NCBI GenBank assembly: GCA_044866355.1
Contig: JBIOTW010000033.1
Coordinates: 13,373 to 77,372 of the forward strand
Source: Candidatus Limnocylindria bacterium
GTDB taxonomy: Bacteria; Chloroflexota; Limnocylindria; QHBO01
Direction of reading: 5' to 3'
Length of the DNA stretch: 64,000 nucleotides
Position 1 is the first letter of the stretch. Each line of letters starts with the position of its first letter. Positions 6,388-49,706 of this stretch are shown one piece after another. The notes under the pieces are model-generated. The model saw only the letters and a program-made list of their open reading frames with translations. It was not told the origin of the DNA and searched no databases. The position numbers and the translations under genes are program-made.

Positions 6388-7236
6388 ATGGAGCACCCAA
6401 GCCAGCCGCGCGCAGCACAGCCTGGTCCGGCGATCACGATCGAAGACCTGGCGGTCAGCTTTCCGGCCCCAACTGGAACCCTGACCGCGCTCGAGGATTT
6501 CAACGGCCGGGTCGGGCAGGGCGAGCTCGTGGCTGTGATCGGGCCCAACGGATGCGGCAAGAGCACCCTCCTGCGGGCGATCGCCGGCCTGGTGCCGCCC
6601 AGCGCCGGGCGCATCGGTCTGGGCCGAGATGGCGCGCCAGCCCGGGCCGGTGATGGTCGAATCGGTCTCATCTTCCAGCAGCCCCGCCTGCTCGGTTGGC
6701 GCTCCGCCCTCGAGAACGTGGCACTCCCCCTGGAGCTGGCAGACACACCCCGGGCCGAGCGTCGGGAGGCTGCCGAACGCGGGCTGAGCCAGGTTGGACT
6801 CGCCGACGTCGGCGACCTGCGACCGCGGGAGTTGTCGGGCGGCATGCAGCAGCGCGTCGCCCTCGCCCGCTCCCTGGTCACCGATCCGCCGGTCCTGCTC
6901 CTGGACGAGCCGTTCAGCGCGCTCGACGCCCTGAGTCGCGAGGCGTTCGACGCACAGCTCGAATCGCTGTGGCTCGCCCAGCGGCGGACCGTCGTGCTCG
7001 TCACCCACTCTGTAGGAGAGGCCATCCAGCTCGCCGATCGGGTCTGGGTCATGACCCCGCGTCCGGGGCGGGTCGCGGCGGACGTCCCGGTTCCGCTCTC
7101 CCGGCCGCGACGGACGGGCGTGGCCGCCGATCCGGGCCTGGCCGCGGTCGAGGTCCGGGTACGCGAGGCATTGGCCGCGGTCCACGCCCCCGAGCTCTCC
7201 GGCTGGGCCGAGCCCGGGCGGGAGGCCGCGGCATGA
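6388..7236 (+). CDS. ABC transporter ATP-binding protein (NitT/TauT nitrate/sulfonate/bicarbonate type)
   Basis: Walker A GPNGCGKST, signature LSGGMQQRVALARSL, Walker B LLLDEPFSALD. Internal ATG at 6388 chosen; the 66 upstream codons are Arg-rich junk. Stop overlaps permease start (ATGA). Confidence 0.85.
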   Translation: MEHPSQPRAAQPGPAITIEDLAVSFPAPTGTLTALEDFNGRVGQGELVAVIGPNGCGKSTLLRAIAGLVPPSAGRIGLGRDGAPARAGDGRIGLIFQQPRLLGWRSALENVALPLELADTPRAERREAAERGLSQVGLADVGDLRPRELSGGMQQRVALARSLVTDPPVLLLDEPFSALDALSREAFDAQLESLWLAQRRTVVLVTHSVGEAIQLADRVWVMTPRPGRVAADVPVPLSRPRRTGVAADPGLAAVEVRVREALAAVHAPELSGWAEPGREAAA

Positions 7237-25009: not shown

Positions 25010-25498
25010 ATGACACCCCATCTGCCGCCTGAGCTCCAGGCCGAGCTCGCCCTGCGCCTGGCCCTGAGCCTGGGCCTGGGTGCTGTCATTGGATTCGAGC
25101 GGGAGTACCACCGCCGGGCGGCCGGCTTTCGAACGCACAGCCTGGTCGCCCTGGGTGCGGCGCTGTTCACCGTGGTGGGCGCCTACGGATTCGAGGAGGG
25201 GGACCCCACCCGAATTGCGGCCCAGATCGTGACCGGCATCGGTTTTATCGGGGCAGGAACCATCCTCCAGTACCGCGGGAGCGTGCGCGGCCTCACCACG
25301 GCGGCTTCGCTGTGGGCCGTGGCCGCGGTGGGGATGGCGGCCGGCGCCGGCCTGTACGTCCTGGCGCTTGTCGGCTCGCTCCTCGTCCTCGTGGCCCTGT
25401 GGCTCATGGATCGGCTGGCGGAACGGGCCCGCGAAGCCGGGCTCCTGCCTCCGGAAGACGACAAGATGCCTGCGCCGCGACCCAAAGACGATCGGTGA
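25010..25498 (+). CDS. MgtC/SapB family membrane protein
   Basis: 162 aa; LALSLGLGAVIGFEREYHRRAAGFRTHSLVALGAALFTVVG is the MgtC signature. Confidence 0.8.
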   Translation: MTPHLPPELQAELALRLALSLGLGAVIGFEREYHRRAAGFRTHSLVALGAALFTVVGAYGFEEGDPTRIAAQIVTGIGFIGAGTILQYRGSVRGLTTAASLWAVAAVGMAAGAGLYVLALVGSLLVLVALWLMDRLAERAREAGLLPPEDDKMPAPRPKDDR

Positions 25499-26283
25499 CC
25501 GACGCTTCCGTGTGCCGGCGCTGCGGCACGGCCAACCGTCCCGGCATCTCCTTCTGCGCGAACTGCGGCCAGCGGCTGGTCGCCGCCGAGGACGCCACCA
25601 TGAGTCGGCCCGGCTCCGTCGCCGAATCGGCGCCCTGCCCGCGCTGCGGTGCGATCAATCGAGCCGGCTCTGCGTTCTGCTCGGAGTGCGGATTCAACAT
25701 TCGGCTGGCGGTGACCCCCGCGGCGGGTTCTTTCGCCAGCCCGGCCGACGCGGCGCTCCACGAGGGCAGACCGGCGCCACTCCCCGAGGCAGCGGCGCCA
25801 AGCACGGACCGACCGGTGCGCGCTTGGCTGGGGCCCATGGTCATGACCATCGCCGCGGTCGGGCTGGGGACGGCCTGGTTCCTGCCCTTCTCCCAGGTCG
25901 AGGGCTCGCTGGCCGATCAGGCCCTCGGCCCCTCGGGCTACGGCCTGGCCTTCTGGACGGCCTATCCCGCCGATGCGGGACTGCTCCAGTCCACCTATTT
26001 CGGCGTGGCCGCTCCGCTGCCGATCCTGGTGGGGATGCTCCTGGTGCTGGCCGGGGTGGGCATCCTGCGCGGGTCGCCGGGCCGGCCGCAGCGGATCGGC
26101 CTGTGGATCGTCCTGGTGTGGTGCGCGGTGCTCGCCATCCTGTTCGTGGTGGTCGAGATCGGATCGGGCCTCGGGGACGACCTCATCGACCTCCTGCGCG
26201 GGCTGTCGCCGGCGGGGCTGATCGGGTTCCTGTCGGGGATCATCGGCGCCATCGGGTCCGTGACCCGCTTGGCCGGAGGCTGA
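25495..26283 (+). CDS. Double zinc-ribbon membrane protein
   Basis: GTG overlapping the mgtC stop; two CxxC-x10-13-CxxC ribbons (CRRCGTANRPGISFCANCG; CPRCGAINRAGSAFCSECG) then ~5 TM helices. Confidence 0.5.
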   Translation: MTDASVCRRCGTANRPGISFCANCGQRLVAAEDATMSRPGSVAESAPCPRCGAINRAGSAFCSECGFNIRLAVTPAAGSFASPADAALHEGRPAPLPEAAAPSTDRPVRAWLGPMVMTIAAVGLGTAWFLPFSQVEGSLADQALGPSGYGLAFWTAYPADAGLLQSTYFGVAAPLPILVGMLLVLAGVGILRGSPGRPQRIGLWIVLVWCAVLAILFVVVEIGSGLGDDLIDLLRGLSPAGLIGFLSGIIGAIGSVTRLAGG

Positions 26284-26294
26284 AGGGGGTCTGG

Positions 26295-28010
26295 CTAGCC
26301 CGCCTGCTCGGCAGGCCGGAGCGGGGATTCGAGACCGGGAGCTTCTCCGGCCGTCTCCGGAGGGCTTGGCACAGGACGTCTGCGTCGCGCGTCCGAGTCG
26401 GCGGCGGCCGCCTCGGCAGGCGGGGCTGGGTGTGCAGAGGAGGCTGCGCCGGCGTTGAGCAGGGCGGCGGCTCGCGGGTCGATCACCTCCAACCCGCCGT
26501 GCGCATACGCATGGAGGCGCTGAACCTCCTCCTGGCCGTCGGACGGGACCTCGTCGCCGAAGACCGCCGAGAAGACCTCGACCACGGTCGGATCGAACTG
26601 GGTGGAAGCGTGGCGCCGCAGCTCGGCCAGGGCCTGGGCATGGGAGAGCGCGGCCTTGTAGGGACGCTCGTGAACCATGGCGTGGTAGGCGTCCGCCACG
26701 GCCACGATCCGCGCCCCGAGCGGGATCTCCTCCCCGCGCAGGCCGTGGGGATATCCCGTCCCGTCGTAGCGCTCGTGGTGGTGGAGGACGATGGGGACGG
26801 CGTCTCGCATGCTGGTCGCCTGCTCGAGGATGACCTGACCGATGCGGGGGTGCTCGCCGACCACCTGCCACTCGAGCTCGGTCAGCGAGGAAGGCTTGTC
26901 CAGGATGGCGTCGGGGAGAGCCAGCTTGCCCAGGTCGTGGAGCAGGGCCGCGATCCGGATTCGCTCCATCTCGATCCGTGACAGGCCCATGTGGAGCGCC
27001 ACCCCGATCGACAGGGCGGCGATCATGTCGGACGGCCGTCCCCGATGATTCGGCTGAGGAGCCAGGACCGATGCCAGCGCCTGCGCGGCGCTGGCGCCGG
27101 CCCAGCGCCCGATGGCCGCCGCCGCATCGCGCCGCTCTGAGGTGATCGCGGCGCGTGGGATCTGCGTGTCGTCGGTGACGTCGCCGGCGAGATAGCTCCG
27201 GTTGCGGCCCTCGGACTTGGCGACGTACATCGCGGCGTCCGCCGCATCGACGATGCGGTCGACAAGCAGGTCGGAGCCGTGGCCACCGGCCACGCCGATG
27301 CTGATCGTCGCATCCACCAGGATGCCCACCCCCACGTTGAGAGGACGCCGCATGACCATCTCTCGCAGCTCCTCGACCAGGACGAGCGCGTCGGCGGGCG
27401 CGGTCTCGGGGAGGATCAGCATGAACTCCTCCCCGCCATACCGACCGAAGATGTCGCTGGCCCGGATGCTGCGTGTGATGAGCCCGGCCAGCTGGCGCAG
27501 GACCGCGTCGCCCACTCGGTGGCCGTAGGTGTCGTTGATCGCCTTGAATCGGTCAATGTCCATGAATGCCACTGACAGCGGCTTCGAATGACGTGTCGCG
27601 CGCTCGACCTCGGCGGTCAGCTGCAGGATCAGCGATTCGCGGTTCGGGACGCCGGTCAGCCGGTCGCGCGTGGCCTGCGCCTCGGCCAGGGCAAAGCTGC
27701 CGGCGGCGCGGTTGAATGCCCGCGCCAGGCGACGCTCGTCGGGCACGCCCGACTCCTTGAGCTGCACCGGCTGCCCCTCATCGACGGTTCTTTCCAGGTC
27801 CCGTGCCAGGCGCCGGAGACGGAGCCCGAAGTAGGCCCAGGTCGCCAGGGCCATGGCCGTGGCGCCCACGCCGATGGCCAGCCCCACCAGCCCGATCGTG
27901 AATCCCCTGGTCTCGGGCGGCTGGTGCACCAGCATCGCTCCCAGGAGTGTCAGGCAAACGGCGGCCAGCGCGGGGTACAGGAAGCCGATGAGCCTCAGAA
28001 GCCCGAGCAA
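26295..28010 (-). CDS. Membrane-anchored GGDEF diguanylate cyclase fused to HD-GYP c-di-GMP phosphodiesterase
   Basis: 571 aa; 2 N-terminal TM helices; GGDEF domain (RYGGEEFMLILPE, product-inhibition site RxxD present); HD-GYP domain (HDLGKLALP ... HHHERYDGTGYP). Confidence 0.85.
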   Translation of the reverse strand: MLGLLRLIGFLYPALAAVCLTLLGAMLVHQPPETRGFTIGLVGLAIGVGATAMALATWAYFGLRLRRLARDLERTVDEGQPVQLKESGVPDERRLARAFNRAAGSFALAEAQATRDRLTGVPNRESLILQLTAEVERATRHSKPLSVAFMDIDRFKAINDTYGHRVGDAVLRQLAGLITRSIRASDIFGRYGGEEFMLILPETAPADALVLVEELREMVMRRPLNVGVGILVDATISIGVAGGHGSDLLVDRIVDAADAAMYVAKSEGRNRSYLAGDVTDDTQIPRAAITSERRDAAAAIGRWAGASAAQALASVLAPQPNHRGRPSDMIAALSIGVALHMGLSRIEMERIRIAALLHDLGKLALPDAILDKPSSLTELEWQVVGEHPRIGQVILEQATSMRDAVPIVLHHHERYDGTGYPHGLRGEEIPLGARIVAVADAYHAMVHERPYKAALSHAQALAELRRHASTQFDPTVVEVFSAVFGDEVPSDGQEEVQRLHAYAHGGLEVIDPRAAALLNAGAASSAHPAPPAEAAAADSDARRRRPVPSPPETAGEAPGLESPLRPAEQAG

Positions 28011-28280
28011 GCGATCCTCCGGATGGTGGGGACGAGCGCAGCATCGGGCCAGCCCGCCGAAAGGGCCATGGCCTGATCGTCAGGTGCGAACTTGCGAGCC
28101 GTGACCGATTGCTTCCGCGGGGGCCGTTGTGGGGTCCGGTGGAGTACTCACCCCGGACCAATGGCGGGGGCCAGAGGTCGTCTGGGGTCGCCGAACGGTC
28201 ATCTGCTAGGATGACGCGCGCGTTTGGCGTGCCATGGAGGCGCGCTCGCCCCGCGTCCCCCCACAGAGAGGCATCGGCGA

Positions 28281-28868
28281 ATGGAAGGTCTGCCGGATCC
28301 CGGCCAGATCTGGAGCGACTTCACCAGCAATCCCGTCGTCCAGCTGGCAGCCACCCTCATCGTCATCTATGTCGTGCTGCTGTGGCTGGGTACCGCCTAC
28401 TGGGCCTTCCGCGACATGCAGGCCCGGACCGAGAATCCGATCCTGCCTTACTTCGCCTCGGCCCTGATCATCTTCTTCACTCCGCTCGTATTCCTGTTCG
28501 CGTGGCTGATGTACATCATCATTCGGCCCCGCGAGACCATGGCGGAGGTCTATGAGCGCTCGCTGGCGGAGGAGTCGTTGCTGGCGGAGATGGAGAAGCA
28601 TCGCAGCTGCCCCACCTGCCGGGCGCGGGTCGACGAGGACTGGATCGTATGCCCCAACTGTCGGACCCGCCTGCACCGGATCTGCCCGGCCTGCCAGCGC
28701 CTGACCGAGCCCGCCTGGTCGATCTGCGCCTTCTGCGGCACCGAGCTCCCGAGCCGGGCCCGCCCGGCCCCCGCCCCGGCGCGCATCGCGGCCACCGCCG
28801 CGAGCGAGCGCGCCCCCGAGTACGGGCCTGAGACGGGCGCCGTCCCGCAGCCGGCAACCAACCGCTGA
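28281..28868 (+). CDS. Membrane protein with C-terminal double zinc ribbon
   Basis: ATG 28281 (MEGLPDPGQIW); two TM helices then CPTCRARVDEDWIVCPNC and CPACQRLTEPAWSICAFCG. Paralogous in architecture to 25495-26283, with reversed domain order. Confidence 0.5.
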   Translation: MEGLPDPGQIWSDFTSNPVVQLAATLIVIYVVLLWLGTAYWAFRDMQARTENPILPYFASALIIFFTPLVFLFAWLMYIIIRPRETMAEVYERSLAEESLLAEMEKHRSCPTCRARVDEDWIVCPNCRTRLHRICPACQRLTEPAWSICAFCGTELPSRARPAPAPARIAATAASERAPEYGPETGAVPQPATNR

Positions 28869-28974
28869 CCGAACCGGCCGACCAGGGGGGCAACGGTCCT
28901 CAGCCGGCACCAGATCCCCTCCTCGCGGATCCTCCCAGGCCGTCCCCGCCACAGTCGCTCCTCCCGGAGCCGCT

Positions 28975-29030
28975 GCCCCCCGCGCCGCTGCCCGCCGCGC
29001 CGCTGCCCCCCGCGCCGCTCCCCCCTGCCT
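28975..29030. repeat. Tandem ~18-nt GC-rich repeat (ccgcgccgctgcccccc x3), encodes PAPLPP repeats in the CPBP reading frame
   Basis: Direct repetition visible in sequence: cgcgccgctgcccgccgcgccgctgccccccgcgccgctcccccc. Confidence 0.6.
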
Positions 29031-29068
29031 GGCCAGCATGGGTCATCGCCGGTCTGGGCCTCATCGTC

Positions 29069-29935
29069 GTGCTGGCCGGGGCGGCGTGGCTCTTCTACGC
29101 GACGGCCCTTTCGGGATCCGCGGAGGGCTGGCTCCTGCCCGCGGGGCTGACCGCGGCCGGCGCGGCCGGACTGCTGGGAGGACTGGGCTGGCTCGGCTGG
29201 CGCGGGATTCTCGCCCGACGCCACCTCCCGCTTCAGCGGTACCGAGGACCGAGCGTCATCCTCCTGTTCTTTGGCGCCATCGCGCTGTCCAACCTGCTGT
29301 CCCTGGTCCCGCTCCTGGCCGCCGCCGCCTCGGGGCAGGACATCACCAGTCCGGGTCCGGTGGCGACCACCGCGCTCCTGCTCCTCAGCCCCCTCGCGTT
29401 CCTGGTCGTGGTTGGCCTGTTCGTGCTACGGCCGCGAGCGCTGGCCGGCGCGCGACTGGGGGACGGACCGCTGACCGGCCGGAACGTGGCCCGGGGCCTG
29501 GCCCTGGGCGCCGCTGCCTGGGTGCTGGCCGCTCTCCTGACCGCCGTTCTCAGCTGGCTGTGGACCCAGGCGACAGGAGAGGAGCCGGCCGAGAGTCAGC
29601 TGGTGGCGACCCTGGCGTCCACGCTGCCGCCCCTGGTCGCCATCGCCCTGATCGGGATCCTGACGCCGGTGGCCGAGGAGCTCTTCTTCCGGTGGGTCGC
29701 CGTCAATGCCTGGGAGCGGGAGCATGGGACGCGCCCGGCCGTCCTGGGCTCGGCGGTGATGTTCGCGATCGCGCACGTCTCGGGTGGGACGCTGTTGGTC
29801 CTGCCTCCCATCTTCGTGCTGGGCCTGCTCCTGGCGGTGGCCTACGTCGCCACGCGGAGCCTGCCTCTCGTGATCGCCACCCACGTCACGTTCAATTGCC
29901 TGTCGGTGGCTGTCCTCTTTGTGGCGGGAGTCTGA
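29069..29935 (+). CDS. CPBP family intramembrane glutamic endopeptidase (CAAX protease/Abi)
   Basis: 288 aa from GTG; motif 1 VAEELFFRW, motif 2 FAIAHV, motif 3 HVTFNCL. The reading frame is open upstream back to 28832 with no ATG/GTG/TTG. Confidence 0.75.
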   Translation: MLAGAAWLFYATALSGSAEGWLLPAGLTAAGAAGLLGGLGWLGWRGILARRHLPLQRYRGPSVILLFFGAIALSNLLSLVPLLAAAASGQDITSPGPVATTALLLLSPLAFLVVVGLFVLRPRALAGARLGDGPLTGRNVARGLALGAAAWVLAALLTAVLSWLWTQATGEEPAESQLVATLASTLPPLVAIALIGILTPVAEELFFRWVAVNAWEREHGTRPAVLGSAVMFAIAHVSGGTLLVLPPIFVLGLLLAVAYVATRSLPLVIATHVTFNCLSVAVLFVAGV

Positions 29936-46655: not shown

Positions 46656-47650
46656 CCGCCGAGCCGCTGCGGGCGGCGGTCATCGGTCTGGGCATGATGG
46701 GCGCGAATCACGCCCGCGTCCTCAACGAGCTGCCCAACGTTGACCTGGTGGCCGTCGCAGACCTCGATCCGGCCGCGGTCCTGCGGGCGACCTCGGGACG
46801 CACGGCACAGGGTTACACGTCGGCCGCGGACATGCTGGCCGCCGAGAAGCCGGACCTCGTGGTGGTGGCGGTCCCCACCTCCCTGCACCTGCCGACCACG
46901 CTCATGGCCCTCGAGGCGGGGGCGCACGTCCTGGTCGAGAAGCCCATCGCGGCCGAGCGAGACCAGGCCGAGCAGATGATCGCCGCGGCCGAGTCGGCGG
47001 GTCGCATCCTGACCGTGGGCCACATCGAGCGCTTCAACCCCGCCATCCGCGAGCTCAGCCGGCGGCTGGACGCCGGCGAGATCGGCCGCGTGTTCCAGGT
47101 CCGTGCATCCCGCCTGGGCCCATTTCCGGCGCGCGTCCGCGACGTGGGGGTCGTGGTCGATCTCGCGCCGCACGACCTGGACGTCATGCGCTACCTCCTC
47201 CGCTCGGAGCCGATCCGGCTGTACGCCGAGACGGAGCAGCGGATCCACACCGACCACGAGGACCTTTTTACTGGGCTCATCAAGTTCGCCTCGGGGGCCG
47301 TCGGCCTGCTGGAGATCAACTGGCTGACTCCCACCAAGGTCCGCACCCTGAGCGTGACCGGCGAGCACGGCATGTACACCGCCGACTACATCACCCAGGA
47401 CCTCGTGTACCACGCCAATCCGGAGTCGGGCTCGGTGGCCGAGGGCGAGATCATCTGGCGCCACATCAAGCGTCAGGAGCCGCTGGTGGTCGAGCTGACC
47501 GAGTTCGCGGCCTCCATCCGGGATGGGGGCGCGCCGCCCGTCGACCCGCGTGACGCCCTGACCGCCCTGCTCCTGGCGCGCGCCATGGTGGATGCCGCGG
47601 AACGCGGCGTGATGCTCGGGCGGGACGAGCTCGCCCAGATGCTGCGTTGA
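46652..47650 (+). CDS. Gfo/Idh/MocA-family NAD-dependent sugar oxidoreductase, WbpB-like
   Basis: GTG overlapping the upstream stop; Rossmann AAVIGLGMMGANHARVL, EKP motif LVEKPIA. Confidence 0.8.
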   Translation: MTAEPLRAAVIGLGMMGANHARVLNELPNVDLVAVADLDPAAVLRATSGRTAQGYTSAADMLAAEKPDLVVVAVPTSLHLPTTLMALEAGAHVLVEKPIAAERDQAEQMIAAAESAGRILTVGHIERFNPAIRELSRRLDAGEIGRVFQVRASRLGPFPARVRDVGVVVDLAPHDLDVMRYLLRSEPIRLYAETEQRIHTDHEDLFTGLIKFASGAVGLLEINWLTPTKVRTLSVTGEHGMYTADYITQDLVYHANPESGSVAEGEIIWRHIKRQEPLVVELTEFAASIRDGGAPPVDPRDALTALLLARAMVDAAERGVMLGRDELAQMLR

Positions 47651-48921
47651 AGATCGCCGTCGTTGGGCTGGGGCACATCGGTCTCCCACTGGCGGTCCAG
47701 TACGCCAGCCGTGGCCACCAGGTGATCGGCTGCGACGTCGACGCCCGGGTGGTGGAGGCCATCAACCGCGGGGAGTCGCCCCACGCCGACGAGCCGGTGC
47801 TGGCCGAGCGTGTCCCCCAGCTCGTGCGGGACGGCCTGCTGAGCGCTACGACCGACGACGAGGCCGGCGTCCGCCAGGCCGAGGTGGTGGTCGTCATCGT
47901 CCCGGTGGTCGTGGACGACGCGCGCGAGGTGGACTACTCGCACATCGACGCCGCCACTCGCGAGGTGGCGCGAGGGCTCCAGCCGGGAACCCTGGTCATC
48001 TACGAGACGACGCTTCCGATCGGGACGACACGGGACCGCCTGGGACCGATGCTGGAGGCCGGGTCCGGCCTCCAGCTGGACCGCGACTTCGCTCTGGCCT
48101 TCTCGCCGGAGCGGGTCCTCGTCGGCCGGGTCCTGCTGGACCTTCAGCGCTACCCGAAGATCGTGGGCGCTACCAGCCCTGAGGGCACGCGGCGGGCGGT
48201 GGATTTCTACACCGCGGTCCTGGAGCCAGGAACCGAGGTCCGGGCCATGGCCAGCGCCGAGGCCGCGGAGATGACGAAGCTGGCCGAGACGACGTACCGC
48301 GACGTGAACATCGCTCTCGCCAACGAGTTTGCGCAGGTCGCGGCGCGGCGCGGGATCGACGTGACGGAGGTCATCGCGGCGGCCAATTCCCAGCCGTACA
48401 GCCATATCCACCAGCCGGGGGTGGGAGTCGGCGGCCACTGCATCCCGGTTTACCCGCACCTGCTGTTCAGTGCCGAGCCCGGCCTGCAGCTTCCGCCCCT
48501 GTCCCGGGCGGTCAACGACGGGATGGCGGCCTACGCCGTGGGCCAGCTGGCGGAGGCCCTGGGCTCGCTCCAGGGGGAGTCGGTGCTGATCCTGGGAATC
48601 GGCTATCGGGGCGACGTCCAGGAGGACTTCTTCAGCAGCGCCTTCCTGCTCCGCGAAGCGCTGCAGGCCGGCGGCGCCCGCACATACGCGCACGACCCGT
48701 ACTTCGACGCCGACCACCTCCGCCATCGTGGGTTCGAGCCCTACGACCTGGCCGCTCCGCAACCCGTGCGCGCCGCGATCCTCCAGGCAGCCCACACGGC
48801 CTACCGCGACCTGGACCTCGCCTCGATCCCCGGACTGGAGGTGGTGCTGGACGGCCGAAACGCCCTGGACCGGGAGCGCGTTGAATCGGCCGGCCTCCGC
48901 TACCTGGGAGTCGGGCGCTGA
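47647..48921 (+). CDS. UDP-glucose/GDP-mannose dehydrogenase-family nucleotide-sugar 6-dehydrogenase, WbpA/WecC-like
   Basis: 424 aa; MKIAVVGLGHIGLPLAV, catalytic Cys region GVGVGGHCIPVYP. Confidence 0.85.
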   Translation: MKIAVVGLGHIGLPLAVQYASRGHQVIGCDVDARVVEAINRGESPHADEPVLAERVPQLVRDGLLSATTDDEAGVRQAEVVVVIVPVVVDDAREVDYSHIDAATREVARGLQPGTLVIYETTLPIGTTRDRLGPMLEAGSGLQLDRDFALAFSPERVLVGRVLLDLQRYPKIVGATSPEGTRRAVDFYTAVLEPGTEVRAMASAEAAEMTKLAETTYRDVNIALANEFAQVAARRGIDVTEVIAAANSQPYSHIHQPGVGVGGHCIPVYPHLLFSAEPGLQLPPLSRAVNDGMAAYAVGQLAEALGSLQGESVLILGIGYRGDVQEDFFSSAFLLREALQAGGARTYAHDPYFDADHLRHRGFEPYDLAAPQPVRAAILQAAHTAYRDLDLASIPGLEVVLDGRNALDRERVESAGLRYLGVGR

Positions 48922-48980
48922 CGACGGACGAGCCCGAGCCGCCTCCACGCGTCGGCCTGGCCGCCGGCCGCGGCGTCTGG

Positions 48981-49706
48981 GTGGTCCTGCCCACGTTCAA
49001 CGAGCGCGAGAACCTGCCTCAGGTCAGCGAAGCGATCTTGGCGGCCCTCCCCGAGGCTCGGCTCCTGGTCGTCGATGACCGCTCTCCCGACGGGACCGGG
49101 GATCTGGCCGACACACTGGCGGCCGCCAATCCGCGGATCGAGGTCCTCCATCGGCCGGCCAAGCAGGGCCTGGGGGCGGCCTATCGGGACGGATTCCGGC
49201 ACGTGCTCGACAAGCCCGGGACCGCCGCCATCATCCAGATGGACGCCGATCTCAGCCACGATCCAGCTGATCTGCCACGTCTGCTCGCGCCGCTCATGCG
49301 GGACGCGGACCTCGTCCTCGGCACCCGCTGGATGCCCGGGGGCGGGACCCGCGGCTGGCCGTGGCATCGGCGCCTGATCAGCCGCGGCGGAACGCTCTTT
49401 GCGCGAACGGTGCTTCTGCTTCCGTATCGCGACCTGACCGGCGGCTTCAAGGCCTGGCGCCGCGACCTGCTGGACGCGATCCGCCTCCGCGAGGCCGATG
49501 CCCATGGCTATGGGTTCCAGGTCGAAACGACCTGGTGGGCGCACCGCCGGCGAGCCGCGATCCGGGAGGTCCCGATCATCTTCCGTGAGCGGGTGGCGGG
49601 GACCTCGAAAATGACCGGCTCCATCGTCCGCGAGGCGATCATCCTCGTGCTCCGCCTCCGGTGGCAGGCCGTGGTACGGAGGCTCAGCCGGCCGCGTGGC
49701 GACTGA
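48981..49706 (+). CDS. GT2 polyprenyl-phosphate glycosyltransferase (Dpm1/Ppm1-like)
   Basis: GTG start; VVLPTFNERENL, DDRSPDGT, MDADLSHDP (DxD). Confidence 0.8.
   Translation: MVLPTFNERENLPQVSEAILAALPEARLLVVDDRSPDGTGDLADTLAAANPRIEVLHRPAKQGLGAAYRDGFRHVLDKPGTAAIIQMDADLSHDPADLPRLLAPLMRDADLVLGTRWMPGGGTRGWPWHRRLISRGGTLFARTVLLLPYRDLTGGFKAWRRDLLDAIRLREADAHGYGFQVETTWWAHRRRAAIREVPIIFRERVAGTSKMTGSIVREAIILVLRLRWQAVVRRLSRPRGD

Follow-up and report, generated by a model that had tools for sequence, protein, structure and literature searches.

The window analysed here is a stretch of 64,000 nucleotides (nt) from a Candidatus Limnocylindria bacterium (assembly GCA_044866355.1, contig JBIOTW010000033.1), and the subject is a pair of plus-strand genes located at its positions 28281 to 29935. 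The first gene (28281..28868) starts with an ATG at 28281, ends with a TGA at 28866-28868 and encodes a zinc-ribbon membrane protein of 195 amino acids (aa). The second gene, with its stop codon at 29933-29935, encodes a predicted intramembrane protease of the CPBP (Rce1-like) family. In the gene calls on the NCBI and Logan contigs, the CPBP gene starts at the GTG at 29069..29071 (+), which results in a product of 288 aa. The comparison with related loci suggests, on balance, a different start: most probably the CUG at 28865-28867, overlapping with the zinc-ribbon UGA, the two genes being separate and translationally coupled.

Reading frames at the locus and in its relatives

The zinc-ribbon protein consists of two N-terminal hydrophobic helices (residues 14-44 and 53-83 in the hydropathy analysis), a double zinc ribbon (Pfam DZR, 2.7e-09), a variable tail and a conserved C-terminal end. 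The CPBP gene is read in the -1 frame relative to it, the zinc-ribbon frame thus being +1 relative to CPBP. Upstream, the CPBP frame is closed within the zinc-ribbon gene by a TGA at 28829..28831 (+); in relatives, the closing stop lies at a variable site, -4 to -115 nt from the zinc-ribbon stop. From 28832 to 29068, the CPBP frame contains 79 codons without ATG, GTG, TTG or stop, and GTG 29069 is its first canonical start. A reading of the sequence alone had described this open stretch, the zinc-ribbon stop located inside it in another frame, and the encoded peptide, and all of this agrees with the sequence. The same holds for the double zinc ribbon, two membrane helices and CPBP domain that it had recognized, given the Pfam matches (DZR as above, Rce1-like with 1.1e-17) and the two hydrophobic segments.

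The proposed full CPBP coding sequence (28865..29935, +) would encode 356 aa. It begins at the CTGA junction (28865..28868, +), where the CTG, as the proposed start, overlaps the TGA in a -4 geometry. A Pro-rich N-terminal linker, fast-evolving and predicted to be disordered, corresponds to residues 1-55 (28865..29029, +) and includes a tandem repeat encoding (A/E)PLPP units (28969..29025, +; period 15 nt, 3.8 copies). The first transmembrane helix (WPAWVIAGLGLIVVLAGAAWLFYATAL...) follows at residues 56-83 (29030..29113, +), and the annotated GTG is judged to be an internal Val, residue 69.

In DNA with 70% GC, the start-less stretch alone is within reach of chance. When the 237 nt were shuffled with their composition preserved, 12% of the trials had neither a start nor a stop; the probability of finding no start in 79 codons is 0.018 under local codon usage, and equally long or longer start-less stretches occur in 6 of about 58 open reading frames (ORFs) of the window that are positive for GC at the third codon position (GC3). 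Since the raw single-genome observation is not beyond chance, its meaning comes only from comparative data.

For this comparison, two sets of loci were gathered, 32 with an alignment to the CPBP protein from species-representative genomes and 80 with an alignment to the zinc-ribbon protein from metagenomes, and the three closest relatives (L116, L117, L118) were added. The CPBP gene lies directly downstream of the zinc-ribbon gene in 92 of the 107 loci with a readable zinc-ribbon stop; in most of the other 15, the contig ends just past the zinc-ribbon gene. The two-frame layout recurs in more than 45 clade loci obtained from independent metagenomes and metagenome-assembled genomes (MAGs), and is conserved across a whole clade of soil Chloroflexota. 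The search for zinc-ribbon homologues gave 463 matches. The 120 listed are 169-207 aa long and 64-90% identical, and none of these carries a CPBP fusion. After the variable stretch, the tail of the protein ends in a conserved last motif, G-A-L-R-R-A-T-N-[TSP].

An assembly indel or a recent pseudogene, with one missing or extra base hiding a true fusion or a destroyed start, would also produce two frames, as a single indel would join them and GC-rich repeats are error-prone. However, three assemblies agree on the frame: the Logan assembly of SRR30692729 (L002) is identical to the window over the linker, and L001 (GCA_044867505.1, contig JBIOVD010000196.1) has 12 substitutions there and no indel. 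Moreover, the clade loci with the same layout come from unrelated samples and the CPBP core is under purifying selection. Because the layout is common to the three assemblies and the more than 45 clade loci, an assembly error or a pseudogene is hardly credible.

The sequence-only reading had proposed that zinc ribbon, linker and CPBP form a frameshifted fusion, and had suggested a check of the orthologues for a fused form. The conserved two-frame layout speaks against the proposal, and neither the homologues nor fusion-directed searches contained a genuine fused protein, in libraries of 5.8 billion and 1.84 billion sequences. An exhaustive HMMER search of the 1.84 billion representatives with the zinc-ribbon query revealed ten long matches with Pfam DZR only and no CPBP domain, and the conceptual 551-aa fusion as a query returned only two long proteins, P0391 and P0403. 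All long candidates (L027, P0245/L119, P0327, P0281, P0268, P0391 and P0403) were rejected due to Arg/Pro/Gly-rich out-of-frame stretches, and where the DNA was read, it carried several frameshifts. In L027 (CAVSAH010000003.1), an indel after the zinc ribbon created an open frame of 595 codons (about 570 aa from the first ATG), while the zinc-ribbon tail (...ERARLSEAPNT*) and the CTGA junction are intact in another frame. In L119 (ERZ25039577 contig_101378), the CPBP part is split over all three frames of the DNA. Indels in long-read MAG contigs are the origin of the chimeric zinc-ribbon-CPBP ORFs present in public protein sets, which are thus artefacts; the only fused ORFs seen, with zinc-ribbon tail and CTGA kept in the other frame, thus speak against an assembly indel in the window as well.

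Translation upstream of the annotated GTG

In a nucleotide alignment of 23 sequences, variability was determined by codon position. It peaks at the zinc-ribbon third positions up to the stop, the variation at 28830-28865 following the zinc-ribbon frame only, and at the CPBP third positions from about 150 nt past the stop. Between 29016 and 29065, wholly upstream of GTG 29069, the value is 0.41 at the CPBP third position, compared to 0.07 and 0.17 in the other two position classes. The gene calls of orthologues scatter between 276 and 327 aa with respect to their predicted N-termini, and the sequence PPAWPAWV(I/L)AGLGL, encoded upstream of GTG 29069 in the window, is common to all the longer ones. 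Orthologues down to 54% identity retain the PPAWPAWV motif. These comparisons indicate that the CPBP frame is already translated before GTG 29069.

The 356-aa protein starting from the CTG was modelled with AlphaFold2, with a predicted local distance difference test (pLDDT) score of 90.8 and a predicted template modelling (pTM) score of 0.83. Helix 1 comprises residues 56-83 in the model, with block mean pLDDT values of 96, 98 and 93 over residues 51-80, and GTG 29069 falls into the middle of it. According to the model, the annotated start would cut a confident first membrane helix. A Pro-rich linker running into the first membrane helix, as the sequence-only reading had described it, is therefore supported by frame conservation, the PPAWPAWV motif and the model helix. 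GTG 29069, which it had offered as a fallback start, is contradicted by the mid-helix position and the upstream conservation.

If the public annotation were right, the protein would begin with MLAGAAWLFY..., and the open frame and the conservation upstream would be by-products of the high GC content. GTG 29069 is the first canonical start, and start-less open frames are common in the 70% GC window. On the other hand, the 13 residues preceding it belong to a helix with block mean pLDDT values of 93-98, the preceding 50 nt are under strong purifying selection in the CPBP frame, and many orthologues do not start at the equivalent codon, their gene calls being spread over 276-327 aa. A start at GTG 29069 is accordingly considered very unlikely.

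The linker itself was analysed with Tandem Repeats Finder, which revealed 3.8 copies of the unit GCCGCTGCCCCCCGC (peptide PLPPA) with a period of 15 nt at 28969-29025; the 18-nt repeat at 28975-29030 described earlier was corrected accordingly. The repeat had also been suspected to be unstable. Indeed, the closest relatives L116, L117 and L118 differ in the number of (A/E/Q)PLPP copies, which ranges from 1 to 5 without any loss of the frame. For the four closest sequence pairs, the ratio of synonymous to non-synonymous substitutions in the CPBP frame of the linker is 21:7, at an expected synonymous fraction of 0.30 (binomial p 9e-07), compared to 5:25 and 3:27 in the other two frames. Synonymous sites start 8-11 nt past the CTG. 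Within the clade, the linker is 89, 92, 98, 101, 104, 116, 119, 131 or 164 nt long; all these lengths are equal modulo 3 and include 3-nt steps, which repeat slippage does not explain. Residues 1-55 show no secondary structure in the AlphaFold2 model (block mean pLDDT 56-80). Taken from the alignments, the linker is translated in the CPBP frame from near the junction. The average over the whole clade shows little codon periodicity in the linker, the signal being clear in the closest pairs only, which counts against a start at the junction; this weakness is attributed to the fast evolution of the linker.

A side observation concerns the same stretch. Window and L001 differ at 22 positions over 10.6 kb, and 12 of these are located at 28929-29077, within or just past the linker. 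Several of them swap P and A between repeat units. The stretch is a local hotspot, perhaps due to repeat-mediated conversion.

Translation could also be initiated at another non-canonical codon inside the linker, for example a CTG of the repeat, which would leave a shorter N-terminal tail and an intact first helix. Candidates are the in-frame CTG codons 37, 42 and 47 counted from CTG 28865 (at about 28973, 28988 and 29003), located 19, 14 and 9 codons before the first Trp in the window. Furthermore, 20 of 30 clade members have CTG, TTG or GTG as the fourth codon ahead of the first Trp, and canonical GTG, TTG or ATG codons occur late in the linker of L008, L011, L016, L040, L041 and L010. Yet this Leu codon was discarded as a universal start, as it is no NTG in 10 of the 30 loci; the window has CTC at this position, and 8 others have GTC, CTT or CAG. 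In addition, the synonymous bias and in-frame 3-nt indels are already found in the first 10-60 nt past the junction, which is unexpected for an untranslated spacer, and the beginning of the linker aligns with the true N-termini of relatives. An internal start is hence regarded as a possible but rather doubtful alternative.

The CTGA junction as the proposed start of the CPBP gene

In the relatives outside the clade, the CPBP gene is found in any of the three frames, with a canonical TTG or GTG 8-20 nt past the first base of the zinc-ribbon stop. Frame and start were tabulated for 92 loci, and the association between them has a Fisher p of 4e-08, uncorrected for phylogeny. In frame 0, all 18 loci have a canonical TTG or GTG at +9 to +18. 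In the +1 frame, 20 of 22 loci have a canonical start in the window from -90 to +45, most of them at +10 to +16. In the -1 frame, where the CTG of CTGA is in frame with CPBP, no canonical start precedes helix 1 in 28 of 52 loci, including the one described here.

The tetranucleotide CTGA is present at the junction of 103 of the 107 related loci, and of the 29 loci without any canonical start before helix 1, 28 have its CTG in frame with CPBP. Among the 30 clade members examined, the CTG overlapping the TGA is the sole near-cognate codon common to all. In a neighbour-joining tree, the clade of the window represents one origin of the start-less state. Further independent start-less lineages, all in the -1 frame, are L030/L035, L029/L033, L070, L097 and L108, which gives at least six such lineages in the -1 frame versus one elsewhere; the only start-less loci outside this frame are L084 and L091. 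In two cases, the change is visible in sister loci: L074 and L103 read ...gccgGTGg at a position where L070 and L097 read ...gccgGCGg, and the comparison indicates that the latter two have lost a canonical start located six codons downstream of an in-frame CTG.

The N-termini can be aligned as well. Relatives with canonical starts begin with GTG-GCC-GAC-CCT (V-A-D-P) or GTG-GTC-GAT-CCC (V-V-D-P) and the clade with CTG-ACC-GAC-CCG (L-T-D-P), so that all follow the pattern NTG-x-Asp-Pro. Overall, the N-terminus of the clade counted from the CTG (L-T-D/E-P...) aligns with V-A-D-P-R-P, V-V-D-P-R-P and V-D-P-R-R-P of relatives. Judging by this comparison of relatives, the codon used is probably CUG. 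The sequence-only reading had named a CTG start as one fallback, and the comparative data turn this into the best-supported explanation, specifically for the CTG 28865 at the zinc-ribbon stop. Initiation at CUG 28865 would result in the N-terminal peptide (M)TEPADQGGNGPQPAPDPLLADPPR.

The canonical CPBP starts of relatives show no match to a Shine-Dalgarno sequence (mean -1.1 kcal/mol), and a Shine-Dalgarno-like sequence of -6 kcal/mol or lower is found at the zinc-ribbon start in 76% of the loci. CPBP starts close to the stop and without a Shine-Dalgarno sequence are a signature of coupling to the upstream gene. No promoter-like or terminator-like site was detected by a promoter and terminator scan between the two genes. 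The RNA at the junction, which has less structure than its shuffles (z +2.07), is a further point in favour of a start there.

Based on these data, the following mechanism is proposed. The zinc-ribbon gene and the CPBP gene would be separate genes on one mRNA with coupled translation. The ribosome that finishes the zinc-ribbon protein at UGA 28866-28868 would re-initiate at CUG 28865 with the initiator tRNA, the junction being a -4 NTGA overlap of the ordinary kind except for the rare C as N, and a Shine-Dalgarno sequence would be unnecessary. The weak CUG would keep the amount of the protease well below that of its zinc-ribbon partner. In the resulting CPBP protein of about 356 aa, the first membrane helix would be intact and preceded by an N-terminal stretch of about 55 residues that is disordered, Pro-rich and cytoplasmic. 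Re-initiation as the mechanism and low protease stoichiometry as its benefit are both what we infer from the arrangement.

NTGA is the commonest coupling geometry (PMC12548453), and the known -4 NTGA pairs (ATGA, GTGA, TTGA) are coupled by termination and reinitiation (Huber et al. 2019, PMC6728339; PMC12548453). The pair described here shares with them the location on the same strand, the four-base overlap of start and UGA, the downstream gene without Shine-Dalgarno sequence and the conserved gene order. In contrast to them, its triplet is the non-canonical CTG, which is kept as CTG across the clade, and the coupling is a prediction. Rare starts (CUG, AUU, AUC, AUA; translation table 11) are likewise comparable, as CUG is a near-cognate NUG for the initiator tRNA and low expression is expected. 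However, such starts are known mostly from single genes in model organisms, whereas here comparative evidence from an uncultured lineage and an overlap with a stop codon are involved. In E. coli, CUG initiation reaches about 1-2% of that of AUG, and CUG is the annotated start in some genomes (Hecht et al., bioRxiv 10.1101/063800).

Several points weigh against a CUG start at the junction. The support for it is all comparative, and CUG initiates poorly in the organisms for which measurements exist. No clade member carries GTGA or ATGA instead, although these would be mostly synonymous for the zinc-ribbon protein; as the CTG is never replaced in this way, the CUG model needs the added assumption of selection for low expression. 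In 106 of 107 loci, C is the third base of the last zinc-ribbon codon (28863-28865 in the window), irrespective of the amino acid and also with the CTG outside the CPBP frame (CCC 64, ACC 25, AGC 6, CGC 5, TCC 3, GGC 2, GTC 1). L084 and L091 are without a canonical start although their CPBP gene is in the +1 frame, and further in-frame CTGs occur inside the repeat. Since the C is conserved also with the CTG out of frame, its conservation cannot be credited to a role in a start codon, and the conserved C before the TGA was dropped as a proof of the CTG start. Locally, the Pro codon CCG is commoner than CCC (41 vs. 25). The two loci L084 (Ga0075435_100003255) and L091 (Ga0075424_100007322) have the zinc-ribbon end CCC-TGA-C and would need a +1 slip or an ATC start.

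A rival explanation is a programmed -1 frameshift where the zinc-ribbon gene ends. A fraction of the ribosomes would slip back by one base at the last sense codon, with the UGA in the A site, and reading on in the CPBP frame would yield a fusion of about 551 aa (about 58 kDa) beside the free zinc-ribbon protein, with a junction peptide LTEPADQGGNGPQPAPDPLLADPPR that begins with Leu and is joined to ...PATNR. In all start-less clade members the CPBP frame is -1 and open across the stop. Most relatives end with AAC-CCC-TGA, where the tRNA-Pro could re-pair on C-CCC with the UGA in the A site, and L084 and L091 are readable by a +1 slip of the same tRNA-Pro. In L010, L016 and L048, the CPBP frame opens just two codons before the CTG, exactly at the CCC-TGA site, and the fusion appears topologically possible. 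But the window itself, L116, L004, L036 and L037 end with AAC-CGC-TGA, which makes re-pairing in the -1 frame impossible, and their CPBP is intact and under purifying selection. Likewise, no -1 re-pairing is possible in L029 and L033 (ACC-TGA) or L030 and L035 (AGC-TGA), which have an intact CPBP under purifying selection, too. A heptamer of the type X-XXY-YYZ is absent from 28832-28868. The junction RNA (28835-28960) has a minimum free energy of -40.1 compared to a shuffle mean of -47.4 (z +2.07), folding worse than 198 of 200 shuffles, and an Rfam search of the junction gave no match, leaving no stable downstream structure as a candidate stimulator. Moreover, neither the length nor the sequence of the linker is constant, the zinc-ribbon frame is the only one in which the substitutions of the overlap are synonymous, relatives with canonical starts make two separate proteins, and the searched libraries hold no genuine fused protein. 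A frameshift is therefore regarded as improbable.

Programmed frameshifts at or near stop codons are known from the +1 site of prfB at CUU-UGA and from the -1 sites of dnaX and of IS elements. The junction resembles such sites in its two overlapping frames, the UGA between them and the Pro codon CCC before the stop in many relatives. It differs from them as the window lacks a slippery site, a stimulatory structure and a suitably spaced internal Shine-Dalgarno sequence, and as the downstream CPBP has free-standing homologues with their own starts. A broader reading, with likewise little probability, would see the junction as a conserved recoding site. Here, ribosomes would either terminate or slip by one base at the Pro codon (mostly -1, and +1 in L084 and L091), giving a fusion at a fixed low ratio, and the lineages with CGC, ACC or AGC would have switched to re-initiation at CUG. 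Whether by recoding or by CUG re-initiation, the pair would represent a conserved two-protein membrane proteolysis module of Limnocylindria with its stoichiometry set at the stop codon.

There are at least 11 canonical -4 overlaps (ATGA, GTGA, TTGA) in the 64 kb of the window, with stops at 7234, 7983, 15348, 10666(-), 25496, 44453, 45550, 46653, 51517, 52650 and 47648, including a chain through the operon at 44-54 kb. The genome relies heavily on overlapped junctions. A second candidate for a CUG start is a gene for a GT2 (dolichol-phosphate-mannose-synthase-like) protein at 48918-49706, which directly follows the UDP-glucose dehydrogenase gene (47647-48921) with a CTGA overlap at 48918-48921. 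GTG 48981, the earliest canonical start of this gene, is already two residues into the beta-1 strand VWVVLPTFNERENL, which is aligned with residue 25 of PfDPMS (5mlz_A). Upstream of GTG 48981 there is no in-frame ATG, GTG or TTG, and the only NTG before beta-1 is the CTG at 48918.

Two further observations on start sites were made in the window. Many starts (17854, 21207, 60553, 35092, 31882(-), 14758(-)) have no Shine-Dalgarno sequence and a TAnnnT hexamer 6-11 nt upstream (TATACT, TAGGAT, TAGACT, TAGGGT, TAGGCT, GATACT), a combination that suggests leaderless mRNAs. A TAGGAT is also located at 28207-28212, upstream of the zinc-ribbon gene. The heptamer CTGACCG occurs at 69 sites compared to 18.7 expected, largely as in-frame Leu-Thr codons. 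It stands directly before ATG at 1784(-), 9797(-) and 21207(+) and several times spans a stop as C-TGA-CCG; as a start-linked signal it was rejected, the enrichment being mainly due to Leu-Thr codon usage.

The CPBP protease and its zinc-ribbon partner

The CPBP protein matches Pfam PF02517 (Rce1-like) with 64.5 bits, compared to a cut-off of 22.4, and matches the NCBIfam CPBP models only below their equivalog cut-offs. All three family motifs are present on the plus strand, and their key residues are invariant in an alignment of 73 sequences: EExxxR as EELFFR at 29675..29692 (E271, E272, R276), FxxxH as FAIAH at 29762..29776 (F300, H304) and HxxxN as HVTFN at 29882..29896 (H340, N344). The protein has a helical membrane fold of the Rce1 type. 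By profile, motifs and fold, the protein is a predicted CPBP / Rce1-like intramembrane protease. Its nearest counterparts among the glutamic intramembrane proteases of this type are SpdC/LyrA of S. aureus (6u0o), Rce1 of M. maripaludis (4cad) and MroQ. In contrast to these, its N-terminus is extended by a Pro-rich tail, and its pairing with a membrane-anchored double zinc-ribbon protein is obligatory. SpdC, which matches it best in structure, is reportedly a non-proteolytic member of the CPBP family.

A joint action of the two membrane proteins is suggested by their strictly kept order, the tight junction and the likely coupling. It may be speculated that the conserved C-terminal end of the zinc-ribbon protein serves the protease as a recognition element or as a substrate. 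The analysis defines a strictly conserved pair, in which the gene of a CPBP protease comes after that of a membrane-anchored double zinc-ribbon protein.

For annotation, the public gene model of this CPBP protein and those of dozens of orthologues are too short, with half of the first membrane helix lost. Gene finders limited to ATG, GTG and TTG will make the same error across the lineage. The junction would be a clade-wide and comparatively supported case of a CUG triplet at the start position of a -4 stop/start overlap. Together with the second candidate in the 64-kb window, it suggests that CUGA overlaps may be overlooked coupled junctions in high-GC uncultured bacteria, and they may be a way to keep a downstream protein scarce. 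This finding extends known mechanisms, namely non-canonical starts and -4 coupled overlaps, and overturns no current understanding.

The gene pair adjoins radC and mreBC. Distant zinc-ribbon homologues (P0245, P0327, P0281 and L119; 50-56% identical) also precede a CPBP-like membrane protein and radC, and judging from these the pair may reach beyond Limnocylindria. Further upstream in the window, an MgtC-like gene (25010-25498) overlaps by GTGA with a second, longer double-zinc-ribbon gene (25495-26283, 262 aa), and this pair is located just upstream of a divergently oriented GGDEF-HD gene (26295-28010, minus strand).

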